From a virus (Duplodnaviria; Heunggongvirae; Uroviricota; Caudoviricetes): a stretch of 4,841 nt of DNA. Shown here one piece after another: positions 764 through 4,841 of this stretch. The stretch lies in the IMG/VR virus record IMGVR_UViG_2802429251_000006; one strand, given 5' to 3'. Numbering within the stretch: position 1 is the first letter of the stretch; each line of letters begins with the position of its first letter. Both the position numbers and the translations under genes were made by a program. Below the pieces are notes generated by a model. It was not told where the DNA came from, ran no database searches, and was given only the letters and a program-made list of their open reading frames with translations.

Positions 764-1159
764 GTGGGATTAAAGAAAATCGTTATGTTGACTTTTTGGG
801 TCAGTTTTGTTGCGGGATGCACACCTTTACACCCTTCAGATTGCCACAAAACTACTGCTACAGGTAGTTGCAGTTCAGGACGCTGGGATGATCAGGATGA
901 ATGGGGGGCGCAAGCGCGGGGAATCAGAGCTGCAATTAATGCCAAACTTGATGAGCCGCATAACTGGAAAGGGAAAAAATGCAGGTTGCATATGGAATTC
1001 TCTCAGGATGGCACGGCGTTAAAAATATCTACCAGTAACGGTGATAAAGCCTATTGCGAAGCGATAAAGTCCGCAGCTCATAAAGCCAAATTTCCGGCCT
1101 TCAACAATCCGGAAGTCTACAGAGATTTTCAGAAATCTGGCTTTGACATGCGAGGTTAG
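764..1159 (+). CDS. Second, diverged lipoprotein with TolA domain III-like C-terminal domain (131 aa, GTG start)
   Basis: GTG start at 764 preceded by GAGGAG (752-757) with a 6-nt spacer. Signal peptide MGLKKIVMLTFWVSFVAGC with lipobox VAGC. The C-terminal region keeps the TolA-III spacing pattern (KKCRLHMEFSQDGTALKI...GDKAYCEAIKSAA...FPAFNNPEVYRDFQ) but is more diverged than the upstream paralog. Confidence 0.7.
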   Translation: MGLKKIVMLTFWVSFVAGCTPLHPSDCHKTTATGSCSSGRWDDQDEWGAQARGIRAAINAKLDEPHNWKGKKCRLHMEFSQDGTALKISTSNGDKAYCEAIKSAAHKAKFPAFNNPEVYRDFQKSGFDMRG

Positions 1160-1410: not shown

Positions 1411-1626
1411 ATGAAATCCATGGACAAAATTTCAACAGGCATTGCCTACGGCACCTCCGCAGGCAGTGCTGGCTACTGGTTTTTACAGCTGCTCGATAAA
1501 GTCACGCCCTCACAGTGGGCAGCAATAGGTGTGCTGGGTAGCCTGGTATTTGGCCTGCTGACGTACCTGACAAACCTTTATTTCAAGATTAAAGAAGACA
1601 AGCGTAAGGCTGCACGGGGAGAGTAA
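1411..1626 (+). CDS. S: Class II pinholin, phage 21 S21-type, with dual-start motif (71-aa antiholin from ATG 1411, 68-aa holin from ATG 1420)
   Basis: Translation [71 protein letters not shown] matches my recollection of S21 closely: Met1-Lys2-Ser3-Met4 dual start, Gly/Ala/Ser-rich SAR-like TMD1, hydrophobic TMD2, basic C-terminal tail. GGAGG at 1399-1403 sits 7 nt before the ATG at 1411. The track ORF starting at 1354 is an in-frame extension with no RBS. Confidence 0.9.
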
Positions 1627-1630
1627 TTCA

Positions 1631-1975
1631 ATGACTCAAAAATATGAACTGATTGTGAAAGGGATCCGCAATTTTGAGAATAAAGTTACGGTAACTTTAG
1701 CGTTACGGGACAAAGAACGCTTTGACGGTGAAATTTTTGACCTGGACATCTCGCTGGACCGTGTTGAAGGTGCCGCGCTGGAGTTTTATGAGGCAGCAGC
1801 CAGAAGGAGCATCAGACAGGTCTTCCTGGATGTTGCTGCCGGGTTATGTGAAGGGGATGAGCTGTCGCCGGAAAAGCGCCCCATAATTTTAGAGGCGCAG
1901 AATGTGTGGATAACCTACAAAGGAAAGCTACCGGGAAGAATTACTGGTTCTCTGAAGACTCCGCCGAAATGGTAA
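1631..1975 (+). CDS. ydfR: DUF1327-family protein (YdfR-like), conserved between holin and endolysin in Qin-type cassettes
   Basis: Translation MTQKYELIVKGIRNFENKVTVTLALRDKERFDGEIFDLDISLDRVEGAALEFYEAAARRS... resembles, as recalled, YdfR of the E. coli K-12 Qin prophage, which also lies between essQ and rrrQ. GGGGAG SD 7-8 nt upstream; starts 4 nt after the holin stop. Family assignment is from memory. Confidence 0.75.
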   Translation: MTQKYELIVKGIRNFENKVTVTLALRDKERFDGEIFDLDISLDRVEGAALEFYEAAARRSIRQVFLDVAAGLCEGDELSPEKRPIILEAQNVWITYKGKLPGRITGSLKTPPKW

Positions 1976-2213
1976 TTTCACCAGCATATTTTTCTTCCAG
2001 TAATACCGCCAGCCACTTGAAAGAATTTTGTTGTTGCTGGGACCATTTGGGGTTGAGTGATTCAAGCTGGAGCGATGCCAGTGTTGGTTGCATTTGTTCC
2101 TTGGGAATTGAGAATGCCAGATATGAAAATGCGACAGTAAGGGCATTTACATCATCCCGAAGCTTGGAAATGCAGTCGAGCAACTCCTGTAGAGAAATGG
2201 TGCTATTGTCCAT
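1941..2213 (-). CDS. Hypothetical small protein (90 aa) encoded antisense in the gap between the DUF1327 gene and the endolysin
   Basis: Minus-strand ORF with ATG at 2213 preceded by GAGAGG and a 7-nt spacer (an ideal SD). Translation MDNSTISLQELLDCISKLRDDVNALTVAFSYLAFSIPKEQMQPTLASLQLE... has a protein-like composition, whereas the same-region + strand ORF (1906-2238) is Cys/Ser-rich and looks like antisense noise. Its 3' end overlaps the last 35 nt of the DUF1327 gene. No homolog recognised. Confidence 0.3.
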   Translation of the reverse strand: MDNSTISLQELLDCISKLRDDVNALTVAFSYLAFSIPKEQMQPTLASLQLESLNPKWSQQQQNSFKWLAVLLEEKYAGEITISAESSENQ

Positions 2214-2318
2214 AAACAATCCTCTCTATTGTATTTAACTATTCCTTGCCTGATTCAACAGGCCGGGACAGATAAACATATCCAGGGTTCAGAAACCGAT
2301 AAATCCTGATAAATATCC

Positions 2319-2861
2319 ATGAACGTAAAAATCAGATACGGCCTGTCGGCTGCCGTTCTGGCACTGATTGCCGTCGGTGCGCCTGCGCCTGATATTCTCG
2401 ACCAGTTTCTGAATGAAAAAGAAGGTAACCACACAACGGCATACCGCGATGGTTCCGGCATCTGGACCATCTGTCGGGGTGCCACGGTGGTGGATGGAAA
2501 ACCCGTTTTTCCCGGTATGAAACTGTCGAAGGAAAAATGCGACCAGGTTAACGCCATTGAACGGGATAAGGCGCTGGCATGGGTGGAGCGCAATATTAAA
2601 GTGCCACTGACCGAACCACAGAAAGCGGGTATAGCGTCATTTTGTCCCTATAACATTGGCCCCGGTAAGTGTTTCCCGTCGACGTTTTATAAGCGGCTGA
2701 ATGCCGATGATCGTAAGGGGGCATGCGAGGCGATTCGCTGGTGGATAAAAGATGGTGGGCGTGATTGCCGCCTGACAAAAGGGCAGAAGAATGGCTGTTA
2801 TGGGCAGGTCGAGCGGCGCGATCAGGAAAGCGCACTGGCGTGCTGGGGGCTGGAGCAATGA
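2319..2861 (+). CDS. R: SAR endolysin (phage 21 R / RrrQ-type lysozyme, T4-lysozyme-like glycoside hydrolase)
   Basis: 180-aa translation begins MNVKIRYGLSAAVLALIAVGAPAPDIL, a weakly hydrophobic Gly/Ala-rich signal-anchor-release domain, then the catalytic triad E35-x8-D44-x5-T50 (EGNHTTAYRDGSGIWT). Overall it resembles the Qin/phage 21 lysozymes as recalled. The stop overlaps the Rz start (ATGA at 2858-2861). Confidence 0.92.
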   Translation: MNVKIRYGLSAAVLALIAVGAPAPDILDQFLNEKEGNHTTAYRDGSGIWTICRGATVVDGKPVFPGMKLSKEKCDQVNAIERDKALAWVERNIKVPLTEPQKAGIASFCPYNIGPGKCFPSTFYKRLNADDRKGACEAIRWWIKDGGRDCRLTKGQKNGCYGQVERRDQESALACWGLEQ

Positions 2862-3394
2862 AAATTAATCCGGATCTTATAGGCGTTGTCGTTATTGCTG
2901 GCCTTTCGGTCGCTCTCGTCAAGAGTTGCTCTCACGCCAGTAATCTTCAGAGCGATAACGACGTTCTGCGAAGTGACAACTCTATGCTGGGGCAGGTAAT
3001 CGCCACCCAGGCATTCAACTTCAATCGATTCAATCAGGTTGCAGAACATGCCAACAGTCTTAACTCCCTGATCGACACCAGCACCGAAAAAACCGTAATC
3101 GAATACCGGGAGATTCTCCGCCGTGAAAAAACCTGTGATCTGCCTGTTCCTGCTGATATCGCTGGTGGGTTGCTCGAATACACGTACCGTTTACGTGCCA
3201 GCGCCATGCACACCGATACCGGCAGACCTAATGAAGCCTATGATCGTACCGCTACCACCAGCTCAATGACCTACTGCCAAGCTGTCTTGTGGATTAAGCC
3301 GCTACTGGCGTTGATAGAAAAAGGAAATAATAATTTTTCGAGTATTCGTGAAATTGATGAGTTGCGTTACAGACCATCTGAGCATGGCCAGTAA
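2858..3394 (+). CDS. Rz: i-spanin Rz (178 aa, type II inner-membrane protein)
   Basis: ATG at 2858 overlaps the endolysin stop. N-terminal TMD LIGVVVIAGLSVALV, then a periplasmic domain of the expected size. A classic Rz1 lipoprotein is embedded in its +1 frame. The track ORF from 2765 is an upstream in-frame extension across the endolysin 3' end. Confidence 0.8.
   Translation: MKINPDLIGVVVIAGLSVALVKSCSHASNLQSDNDVLRSDNSMLGQVIATQAFNFNRFNQVAEHANSLNSLIDTSTEKTVIEYREILRREKTCDLPVPADIAGGLLEYTYRLRASAMHTDTGRPNEAYDRTATTSSMTYCQAVLWIKPLLALIEKGNNNFSSIREIDELRYRPSEHGQ
3123..3269 (+). CDS. Rz1: o-spanin Rz1 (48 aa proline-rich outer-membrane lipoprotein, fully embedded in the +1 frame of Rz; GTG start)
   Basis: Hand translation of the +1 frame: (M/V)KKPVICLFLLISLVGCSNTRTVYVPAPCTPIPADLMKPMIVPLPPAQ*. 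Signal peptide with lipobox LVGC; mature region has 8 Pro in 32 residues and a second Cys. GGGAG at 3108-3112 lies 10 nt upstream of the GTG. The frame opens at 3099 with no in-frame ATG before the hydrophobic core, so GTG 3123 is the likely start. Too short to appear in the supplied ORF track. Confidence 0.75.
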   Translation: MKKPVICLFLLISLVGCSNTRTVYVPAPCTPIPADLMKPMIVPLPPAQ

Positions 3395-3562: not shown

Positions 3563-4255
3563 TCAAATCTTATCTAACTCATTATAGGCTTCGATAATAA
3601 AAATTCTGATTTTAATAAGGCATGATTCAATGAAAGGAATTACTTCATGGTCATTCCCATGGAATCTTATTTTTTTCTCTTCGGTAATGACTATGTTTAA
3701 AGGTACACCATTACCACTTCTTTGTAATTTCCCATTTTCGAAAGTAAAGTCTTCTAATTTTTTGCCATTGATGTGGTTGTTTTTAAAGAGAATTTTTGCT
3801 GAGCTTCCTGCTGTGATTAAACCAAAACCATCTACGCTCACACTTAGGTCTTTAACAGAACTCTCTTCTCTTAAGGGGATTGGTTGTCTGTGCTTTACTT
3901 CATTAGTGAGATTACACATCATTTCCAACCAAGATTCGCCAGTGTGATAATCCTGTATAGAAGTAAAAATTTTATATAATGGAGAAGATGATGGTGGGTT
4001 TATTTTTAGCGTCTTTGAGAAAAATTTATCAATAAACTCTTTTTTTCCGTAAGGGAAATATATTTTGGGGCGCTCATCATTACTGCGTGGAGAAATATAT
4101 TTATCATAGGTATCATTAGCGAGATACTCTAAGGAACTTCGTAAGTTTTCCAAAATAGCTTTGACTTTTACAGGCTTGATATGCTGTGTCTGTCTCATTA
4201 TGTCAAGACTTTCTTCAACTTCTTGCAATAAGTCCAACGAGCCTTCTCTAGACAT
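3563..4255 (-). CDS. Hypothetical 230-aa cytoplasmic protein; AT-rich cargo (moron) gene convergent on the lysis cassette
   Basis: Minus-strand ORF with ATG at 4253-4255 preceded by a strong AAGGAG SD (10-nt spacer). Translation MSREGSLDLLQEVEESLDIMRQTQHIKPVKVKAILENLRSSLEYLANDTYDKY... has no signal peptide or TMD. GC content is clearly lower (roughly mid-30s percent by eye) than in the adjacent lysis genes (about 50 percent). No family recognised. Confidence 0.75.
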   Translation of the reverse strand: MSREGSLDLLQEVEESLDIMRQTQHIKPVKVKAILENLRSSLEYLANDTYDKYISPRSNDERPKIYFPYGKKEFIDKFFSKTLKINPPSSSPLYKIFTSIQDYHTGESWLEMMCNLTNEVKHRQPIPLREESSVKDLSVSVDGFGLITAGSSAKILFKNNHINGKKLEDFTFENGKLQRSGNGVPLNIVITEEKKIRFHGNDHEVIPFIESCLIKIRIFIIEAYNELDKI

Positions 4256-4350
4256 ACAGGTAATTCTCCTTTATGAATTTTCAACATGTTATAACTAATA
4301 ATATATTTATCATATAACTGTATGAATAAATTGTGAGATTAGTAATGCAA
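4256..4350 (-). promoter_or_regulatory. AT-rich upstream region likely holding the cargo gene's own promoter (hexamers not confidently assigned)
   Basis: About 95 nt of greater than 75 percent A+T immediately upstream of the minus-strand ATG, with several TATAAT-like and TTGNNN-like hexamers on the minus strand (e.g. TTGCAT, TATAAC). Position-based inference only. Confidence 0.25.
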
Positions 4351-4610: not shown

Positions 4611-4722
4611 TGGGTCCTCCCGGCAGTGTGTCCTGCCACGGGGCGGGAGCGTCGCGGAAAAAGGCTAGTTTTTGAAATTTCATTCGTCATCACCACTACT
4701 GTAATGTATTGATATTACAGTG
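4611..4722. other. Candidate lambda-like cohesive end site (cosQ-cosN-cosB)
   Basis: TGGGTCCTCCCGGCAGTGTGTCCTGCCACG-GGGCGGGAGCGT-CGCGGAAAAAGG...TTCGTCAT resembles, from memory, lambda cos (ACGGGTCCTTTCCGGTGATCCGACAGGTTACG-GGGCGGCGACCT-CGCGGGTTTTCGC...TTCGTCAT): shared GGGTCCT, ACGGGGCGG, CGCGG and TTCGTCAT blocks at the same spacing. It lies about 175 nt upstream of the next gene start, as in lambda. Not verified by alignment. Confidence 0.45.
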
Positions 4723-4826: not shown

Positions 4827-4841
4827 ATGGATCGAGAGTTA
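4827..4841 (+). CDS. Probable 5' end of terminase small-subunit gene (truncated by the window; first 5 codons only)
   Basis: ATG at 4827 with GGAG 5 nt upstream (4818-4821), about 175 nt downstream of the putative cosN, mirroring the lambda cos-nu1 layout. Only MDREL is visible, so the call rests on position. Confidence 0.25.

Follow-up and report, generated by a model that had tools for sequence, protein, structure and literature searches.

A conserved 90-residue protein gene facing against the late operon between ydfR and the endolysin gene of a lambdoid Escherichia coli prophage, and the upstream element it partly shares with unrelated prophage genes

Introduction

The morons of lambdoid phages were reportedly defined by Juhala et al. 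in 2000 for phages HK97 and HK022. In phage lambda, the bor gene is located after Rz and its transcription runs against that of the late operon. Here, we describe a 90-amino-acid (aa) open reading frame (ORF) on the minus strand (positions 1941–2213) of a 4841-base stretch of DNA, the late region of an Escherichia coli lambdoid prophage; the whole stretch is referred to as the window. The ORF lies in the lysis region, between ydfR, a gene of the DUF1327 family, and the endolysin gene. Two kinds of prophage RNA are also relevant to this locus. STnc6030 of prophage BTP1 is a transcript made in the lysogen and antisense to late genes, which contains no ORF of more than 60 aa and acts by base pairing (PMC7067206). 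AgvB and AsxR, anti-small RNAs of enterohemorrhagic E. coli prophages, are non-coding RNAs of 51–60 nt located at the moron site after PR′ (PMC4104026).

The window ORF resembles the morons in that it is a small gene on additional DNA, separating two genes that are neighbors in relatives, and lies on the strand opposite to theirs in the lysis region; its expression in the lysogen is presumed. It differs from them in having neither a clear σ70 promoter/terminator pair nor lipoprotein or membrane signals, and it is unlike the classical morons in belonging to a group of cassettes with one upstream element in common. Like AgvB and AsxR, it is a small accessory unit at a conserved place in the lambdoid late region, convergent with its neighbors, although it has no sequence relation to them and the window locus has no Rfam match. 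Unlike the case of STnc6030, it is the protein that is conserved at this locus. The ORF belongs to the family PHROG 2411/WP_000370545.1, which has no name and no Pfam or NCBIfam model, and being present in RefSeq and PHROGs without a function, it is an uncharacterized moron-type gene. By itself it is an ordinary annotated hypothetical prophage gene; its value lies in the slot that it occupies and in the shared element, with a covarying leader, to which it is linked. No paper on the 90-aa gene or on the shared element was found in a literature search whose scope left out subscription journals, where the cassette class may be described.

Results and discussion

A conserved protein gene on the minus strand of the ydfR–endolysin gap

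A reading of the window made from its sequence only had drawn attention to a 343-bp gap between the DUF1327 gene and the endolysin gene, and to an antisense ORF in this gap with a near-ideal ribosome-binding site. Both descriptions were accurate. ydfR (114 aa; PF07041, E 8e-43) occupies 1631–1975 of the plus strand and the endolysin (phage lysozyme) gene (PF00959, E 1e-23) occupies 2319–2861 of the same strand, divergent from the ORF, so that the gap extends from 1976 to 2318. The ORF starts with ATG at 2213–2211 and stops at 1943–1941, and the Shine-Dalgarno sequence GAGAGG (2226–2221, minus strand) is separated from the start codon by a 7-nt spacer (2220–2214). The block AAGAGGATTATTTATG around the Shine-Dalgarno sequence is retained in most E. 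coli-type variants, as is the start. A longer form of 92 aa with a TTG start at 2219 was given in the ORF listing; RefSeq annotates exactly the 1941–2213 ORF, as the hypothetical protein WP_000370545.1. The 90-aa protein matched the PHROG 2411 profile with an E value of 2.2e-59, residues 1–90 aligning with positions 1–90 of the 90-position profile, and had no match in Pfam, NCBIfam, or PADLOC.

Selection on the ORF was examined using 12 distinct DNA variants from E. coli, E. albertii, and metagenomes, which show approximately 86–100% identity in the gap. A copy on an IncF plasmid (74% nucleotide identity, 92 aa) was left out because its length differs. The minus-strand frame was open in all 12 variants. 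Outside the overlap with ydfR, the variable columns were distributed as 29, 19, and 50 among the first, second, and third codon positions of this frame, and its ratio of nonsynonymous to synonymous differences per site (pN/pS) was 0.31. The same DNA contains a plus-strand shadow ORF of 110 aa (1906–2238), whose frame gave a pN/pS of 0.30. Because the two antisense frames share their third codon positions, a ratio of the dN/dS type cannot discriminate between the strands. The minus frame was chosen as the coding frame because the plus frame contains stops in 8 of the 12 variants and because the second positions of the minus frame vary less than the first. The shadow ORF, whose second positions vary more than its first and which has no family match, was judged to be non-coding, in agreement with the earlier view of it as noise. 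The impression that the antisense translation looks like a real protein was likewise borne out: in addition to the open, selected frame, relatives at 30–45% identity retain its length and motifs. The gap was also considered as the remnant of a plus-strand gene, namely of a longer YdfR; this origin was ruled out, since the gap does not resemble the C-terminal extension found in the 183-aa YdfR of phage 2H10. These comparisons of sequences indicate that the minus-strand ORF is a real, conserved small protein gene, and the proposal that the gap is merely non-coding DNA or a degenerate plus-strand gene, for which the 110-aa shadow ORF and the existence of long YdfR forms could be cited, can hardly be upheld against the broken plus frame, the lack of similarity to the 2H10 protein, and the distant homologues of the minus-strand product.

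The 3′ ends of the ORF and ydfR overlap tail to tail by 35 nt (1941–1975, both strands), the final 11 codons of the ORF being antisense to the conserved ydfR C-terminus (…GRITGSLKTPPKW). The variable columns in this overlap were 3, 8, and 6 for the first, second, and third ORF codon positions, the most variable being the second positions of the ORF, which are the third positions of ydfR. An AlphaFold2 model of the product (predicted local distance difference test score, pLDDT, 79–80.5) comprised a three-helix bundle (residues 8–33, 38–52, and 59–77) and a disordered tail (80–90). Because the overlap varies most at the third positions of ydfR, this tail looks like a by-product of where the frame happens to stop. 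The product is acidic, with a net charge of about −6; no signal peptide or membrane segment was seen in it by inspection, and it is predicted to be cytoplasmic.

Several independent variants of 94 aa (P0044, P0046, P0049, P0051, and P0058) change frame at or just after the Gln run KWSQQQQ and shift into the frame of the ORF at 1928–2146. The site is the CAGCAACAACAAAA run on the minus strand (2022–2040 in the window), and the frame change could reflect either a slippage-prone site or sequencing errors.

Distribution of the gene and its homologues

A stretch identical to the window was found in many E. coli chromosomes, and one of 99.5% identity was present in the isolated phage Chlobot. About one fifth of the complete E. 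coli genomes (1053 of 5426) contain at least 80% of the gap, and the exact 90-aa protein was found on at least 1000 contigs; 3 of 50,697 phage records carry the gene. The identical holin–ydfR–ORF–lysozyme cassette also lies inside the Rac prophage of E. coli B95.deltaA (BL21 lineage; locus L023), between sieB/ydaF and trkG.

Relatives of about 60% identity were found in Citrobacter and in Salmonella enterica subsp. salamae. To collect distant relatives, 1.8 billion representative proteins were searched with a profile, and a profile word search was then made. They are proteins of 81–97 aa with 26–45% identity and the motif ELL..I..LR..VN.L..AFSYLAFS...E....TI.SL.FES.N, annotated as hypothetical proteins of Serratia (at least 1000 contigs), Chania, Gibbsiella, Chimaeribacter, Sodalis, and Acerihabitans. 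The distant members P0066, P0068, P0072, and P0077 also matched PHROG 2411. The searches extend the family to genes in chromosomes, among them those of Serratia and Sodalis.

In E. coli, E. albertii, and Shigella, the gene is inside the lysis cassette. Close relatives are always arranged tail to tail with ydfR, including those in an Stx-type phage and in a cassette with a quite different downstream lysis set. Distant relatives are located between the tail genes M and L, near the terminase/packaging genes, or, in Citrobacter, just 5′ of the holin gene. Lone chromosomal homologues occur between dinI and bssS (Serratia-type locus) and in Sodalis ligni. In every phage context seen, the gene faces against the late genes.

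Two side observations concern individual relatives. The IncF plasmid p4422IncF (L009:2460–2738) carries a 92-aa homologue of 57% identity between a transposase remnant and an autotransporter gene, with neither ydfR nor the shared element. A Citrobacter prophage with a PHROG 2411 gene contains a match to the Rfam family isrI, an Hfq-binding small RNA (51.7 bits; L036:5929–6026, minus strand).

The ydfR–endolysin junction as a variable slot

It had been noted in the sequence-only reading that ydfR and the endolysin gene are close together in related cassettes. This is true for some of them: the two genes overlap in the Qin prophage of K-12, and other cassettes have a gap of 63 bp. Four states of the junction were seen, namely no gene, the 90-aa gene, a different minus-strand gene of 79 aa, and a long YdfR. 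The 79-aa gene, a member of PHROG 21218, occupies the same place as the 90-aa gene in strain NRG 857C, which we take to be a close relative of strain LF82. In phage 2H10, the 183-aa YdfR is accompanied by a partial copy of the shared element at the junction. Alignment with the 63-bp form (L011) placed the DNA missing from cassettes without a slot gene at approximately 1972–2249. Cassettes without the insert match only 2263–2318 of the gap (query positions 288–343), and homology with them extends to the ydfR stop. In strain D97-1, a deletion takes out most of ydfR together with the ORF. The ydfR–endolysin junction is thus a slot for interchangeable backward-facing small genes.

An upstream element and leader RNA shared by unrelated small genes

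Distant PHROG 2411 genes in phages are preceded by conserved DNA containing two hairpins, the stems of which differ in sequence but remain paired. When the 17-mer GGRATGGCTGATTAMCT from this DNA was searched for in viral contigs, more than 120 stretches matched, and 90 distinct copies among the matches listed were aligned over approximately 150 nt (alignment A7). The consensus was ACTGTTTGAATATCAGGATGTT..CT...TAACCCTGGTTAAGGT....TTCAGCCCGTCAGTGGTGGGACACTGGCGCACTC...GAGGGATGGCTGATTACCTCTG..AAGGAAA..ATG, and examples of the element are L027:3873–4024, L024:3871–4022, and L012:1388–1547 (minus strand). The element contains a palindrome-like CTG-N9-CAG block and a −10-like TAAGGT; no convincing −35 sequence could be placed by eye. 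LexA control was considered and rejected, the palindrome being CTG-N9-CAG and not CTG-N10-CAG. At the Serratia-type locus, dinI has a canonical LexA box and the adjoining homologue has none.

The ORFs located 3′ of the element are mostly 50–100 aa in length and fall into 19 clusters without detectable similarity to each other, one of which is PHROG 2411. At least 18 unrelated small-ORF families follow the element, at many positions in the late operon. For ten representative ORFs, the sole matches were to DUF1883 or to PHROGs without a known function. Of 91 element copies, 66 are flanked on each side by a long ORF of the opposite strand, and in 78 the upstream long ORF has this orientation. In L057, L074, L113, and others, the cassette abuts the start of an endolysin gene.

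In the structure predicted with RNAalifold, a near-invariant UCAGCC pairs with GGCUGA in the loop of the second hairpin, giving a pseudoknot-like arrangement. Because the search pattern had fixed the 3′ strand of this long-range pairing, as well as part of the second hairpin, invariance at those positions is uninformative. The UCAGCC:GGCUGA pairing encloses a hairpin, and at each of three pairs 19–21 sequences were changed on both sides. A GAGG/CCUC hairpin surrounds GAUGGCUGAUUA. When the three helices were specified explicitly, 97.2% of cells were paired, against 30–52% when the partner was slid. The inner hairpin showed compensatory change at all five of its pairs, and G·U pairs were frequent on the ORF-sense strand. 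Because the pairing is maintained, with compensatory changes and frequent G·U pairs, the alignment points to the canonical leader acting as an RNA on the ORF-sense strand.

A covariance model (R1) was built from alignment A7. Genomic copies confirmed by R1 (50–142 bits) were found only in Enterobacterales, in Enterobacter, Pseudocitrobacter, Dryocola, Serratia, Pantoea, Photorhabdus, Xenorhabdus, Yersinia, and Providencia. Matches of the 17-mer in genomes of other phyla were attributed to chance, R1 having confirmed Enterobacterales loci only. Identity with a known small RNA was ruled out, since no match was obtained in Rfam 15, at E values up to 1, for the window or for the leaders of L024, L027, L032, and L036.

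The copy of the element in the window

R1 matched the window at 2214–2321 on the minus strand (27.8 bits, E 0.016), and its match to the element of the NRG 857C slot gene was full-length (69.4 bits, E 4e-10). The element's 5′ part, a promoter/operator-like segment at 2269–2321 that overlaps the endolysin start codon, corresponds to R1 positions 1–53 and was aligned with high posterior probability. It includes, on the minus strand, ATCAGG (2310–2305), CCCTGG (2287–2282), and a −10-like TATGTT (2280–2275). This part may function as a promoter. The structured core, on the other hand, is gone: 62 positions of R1 are reduced to 19 nt, neither GGCTGA nor TCAGCC is present, and the same loss was observed in all E. 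coli-type copies. In its place is a short leader (2214–2268, minus strand) containing a remnant hairpin, GCCTG-TTGAAT-CAGGC (2263–2248). The window gene accordingly shares with the other cassettes the slot, the orientation rule, the size class of its ORF, and element positions 1–53, and it differs from them in lacking the UCAGCC:GGCUGA pairing, the covarying hairpin, and the GAGG/CCUC hairpin around GAUGGCUGAUUA.

A weak minus-strand promoter had previously been proposed within this region, consisting of TTGAAT (2258–2253), a 19-nt spacer, and TACAAT (2233–2228). Both hexamers and the spacer are present as described. Their interpretation as a promoter, however, is probably wrong, because TTGAAT is the loop of the remnant hairpin and the conserved block lies further upstream. 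TACAAT is located 15 nt 5′ of the ATG and, as a −10 sequence, would leave a leader of only about 8 nt.

Late-strand partner genes

The 3′ end of the backward ORF is overlapped by a late-strand ORF of 45 aa or more in 55 of 91 cassettes. A simple rule was used to call these partner ORFs, which resemble one another only weakly in pairwise comparison. About 30 of the 91 begin with MTLEQRVEALEK and then diverge (for example, L048, L075, L093, L133, and L137), and a 72-aa YdfR with a different C-terminus is the partner at two loci. YdfR itself occurs in forms of 72, 103, 104, 114, and 183 aa, which have a conserved N-terminus and a variable C-terminus differing with the content of the slot. Two partners of PHROG 2411 genes end in IFGDLKKPPSY (L027) and ITGSLRAPIKL (L036), resembling the ITGSLKTPPKW of the window YdfR; the L024 partner, with the ending LTGDILIPLES, is similar to that of L036 along its whole length (pairwise E 4e-7). 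As a lead only, these sequences suggest that what is exchanged is the backward ORF together with the C-terminal portion of a small late-strand gene, with the shared element as the boundary. K-12 YdfR is reported to use its first 72 residues to bind the catalytic half of RNase E, and to co-purify with RNA (PMC13232886).

We tentatively suggest that these loci represent an undescribed cassette system of Enterobacterales prophages, a proposal that we regard as possible but that may well prove incorrect. Dozens of unrelated genes of 50–100 aa would be placed behind one promoter/operator block, with a pseudoknotted leader in the canonical copies, would face backward in the lysis, tail, and packaging regions, and would each be swapped together with the C-terminal part of YdfR or of a MTLEQRVEALEK-type gene. 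If so, the cassettes would constitute a co-regulated, exchangeable repertoire of lysogen-expressed proteins serving, for example, in exclusion or counter-defense, or as matched partners of the variable tail of a late protein, and the leader would be a new regulatory or stabilizing RNA. Provided that the cassettes are expressed in lysogens, they would offer a compact and easily recognized source of candidate exclusion, defense, and counter-defense proteins, and the leader would be a candidate cis-regulatory RNA. The window represents this wider class and the leader RNA only in part.

Proposed role of the 90-aa gene and alternative explanations

With moderate confidence, we propose that the minus-strand ORF is a functional accessory gene of the moron type, carried as a cassette in the variable ydfR–endolysin slot. 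Transcription would start from the shared element, near TATGTT at 2280–2275, and the resulting leader of approximately 50–55 nt would carry a good Shine-Dalgarno sequence. The protein would be made independently of the Q-dependent late operon and, because of this independence, would be produced in the lysogen; convergent late transcription would then shut the gene off after prophage induction. Because the E. coli lineage of the cassette appears to have lost the pseudoknotted leader RNA, expression is probably free of leader control. It may be speculated that the 90-aa protein binds a host protein or a protein of an incoming phage in exclusion, defense, or counter-defense, and that it is not part of the lysis machinery.

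Several observations weigh against this proposal. A scan for consensus σ70 promoters with 16–18-nt spacers called no minus-strand site in 2214–2420, and the conserved promoter-like block contains only a weak −35 sequence. No minus-strand terminator was called 3′ of the ORF; a 7-bp hairpin followed by UUUUCC, about 45 nt 3′ of the ORF within the antisense of ydfR, had a z-score of −0.9 and was not above the shuffled background. The missing structured leader could also mean decay, and several variants are frameshifted at the CAGCAACAACAAAA run. Searches by sequence and by fold gave no functional lead, the AlphaFold2 model yielding no informative match. Strong constitutive expression in particular is disfavored by data on LF82, a well-studied adherent-invasive E. 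coli strain, in which no ydfR–endolysin slot gene is among the genes exceeding the prophage background by a factor of 5 or more in LB medium, although that listing was not mapped onto the slot gene (PMC9928086).

An unlikely alternative is that the transcript, and not the protein, is what matters. As an antisense RNA to the 3′ end of ydfR and perhaps to the holin gene, it would damp leaky late transcription in lysogens or destabilize the late mRNA of a superinfecting relative. The 35-nt overlap with ydfR, the lack of a strong minus-strand terminator downstream, and the frequent 3′ overlap with late-strand ORFs in other cassettes (55 of 91) are consistent with such a role, and there is a precedent in STnc6030, which lies in the late genes of prophage BTP1 and excludes superinfecting BTP1 (PMC7067206). 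However, selection has acted on the protein (pN/pS 0.31), homologues persist at 30% identity, and the stand-alone chromosomal copies have nothing to be antisense to. Given this conservation of the protein sequence, any role of the RNA would have to come in addition to that of the protein.

The co-variation of the partner C-terminus with the backward ORF, next to a conserved N-terminus, raises the idea that the 90-aa protein and the C-terminal tail of its late-strand neighbor (YdfR here, a MTLEQRVEALEK-type protein elsewhere) form a matched, immunity- or antitoxin-like pair that is swapped as one module. Produced in the lysogen, the 90-aa protein would then recognize this variable tail or neutralize it. 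The L027 and L036 partners, which end like the window YdfR, fit this idea. We consider it improbable nonetheless: cassettes that lack the ORF also have the ITGSLKTPP tail, the Serratia and Sodalis copies have no partner, and the partners depend on a simple calling rule and weak pairwise similarities.

A third explanation, to which we assign a similarly low probability, is that the gene is a decaying passenger that lost its leader in the E. coli lineage, its ORF being neither expressed nor useful. The deletion of the structured core, the existence of frameshifted and truncated forms, the D97-1 deletion, and the presence of the gene in just 3 of 50,697 phage records would all be expected of such a passenger. 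Yet the variants used in the selection test all have the truncated leader, and their frame is open in 12 of 12 with a pN/pS of 0.31; intact 90-aa forms dominate the clusters, and the Shine-Dalgarno sequence and the start are retained. Because this selection was measured among copies that already lacked the core, the gene appears to be still in use without it.

Regulation of lysis timing had been suggested earlier for this gene; such a role, acting on the pinholin, the endolysin of the signal-anchor-release (SAR) type, or YdfR, is very improbable. It would fit the location of the gene in the lysis cassette of E. coli, E. albertii, and Shigella and beside the holin gene in Citrobacter, and the presence of another backward gene in the same slot of NRG 857C. 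The ORF is oriented against the late operon, however, and would therefore not be co-expressed with the lysis genes. Moreover, homologues lie between the tail genes M and L, near the terminase gene, and alone in chromosomes, so that no tie specific to lysis is seen; the same element stands before 18 or more unrelated families of ORF, at many positions in the late operon; and the protein has no membrane segment.

Other features of the window

The holin gene (1411–1626, plus strand) is of the phage 21 class II type. Its product begins with MKSMDK, in which two Met codons are three apart, and we presume this to be comparable to the dual start of the phage 21 pinholin. The N-terminal segment of the lysozyme (within 2319–2400) is rich in Ala and Gly, and the E-8-D-5-T motif is present; we take these features to be those of a SAR endolysin. 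The next gene (2858–3394, plus strand) is Rz-like; it had no Pfam match and is annotated as hypothetical in RefSeq. A lipoprotein ORF (MKKPVICLFLLISLVGC...) is embedded in it in the +1 frame (3123–3269, plus strand) and is absent from the RefSeq annotation. Judged by these sequence features, the pair is an Rz/Rz1 spanin arrangement.

Upstream of the holin gene are two tandem paralogous lipoprotein genes (185–613 and 764–1159, plus strand) with the TolA C-terminal domain PF06519 and the lipobox-like sequences IIIGC and FVAGC; a terminator-like hairpin (1285–1302) lies 3′ of the pair. One possible role of these lipoproteins is that of a decoy for colicins or phages that depend on TolA. In LF82, the morons of prophage Perceval that are expressed in the lysogen include a ‘TonB fragment’ gene (PMC9928086).

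Between Rz and the packaging genes lies an AT-rich gene (approximately 33% GC) of 230 aa on the minus strand (3563–4255). It matched PHROG 13652 over its full length and had no match in Pfam, NCBIfam, or PADLOC. Promoter-like sites are found at 4337–4298 on the same strand. This is the second backward accessory gene in the window, and it is without the shared upstream element. The packaging genes begin near the end of the window with a DUF1441 gene (ATG at 4827, plus strand). About 180 bp 5′ of this gene, a GC-rich stretch, GGGGCGGGAGCGTCGCGG, is located at approximately 4620–4660 on the plus strand; by analogy with lambda cos, we guess that it is a possible cohesive-end site.

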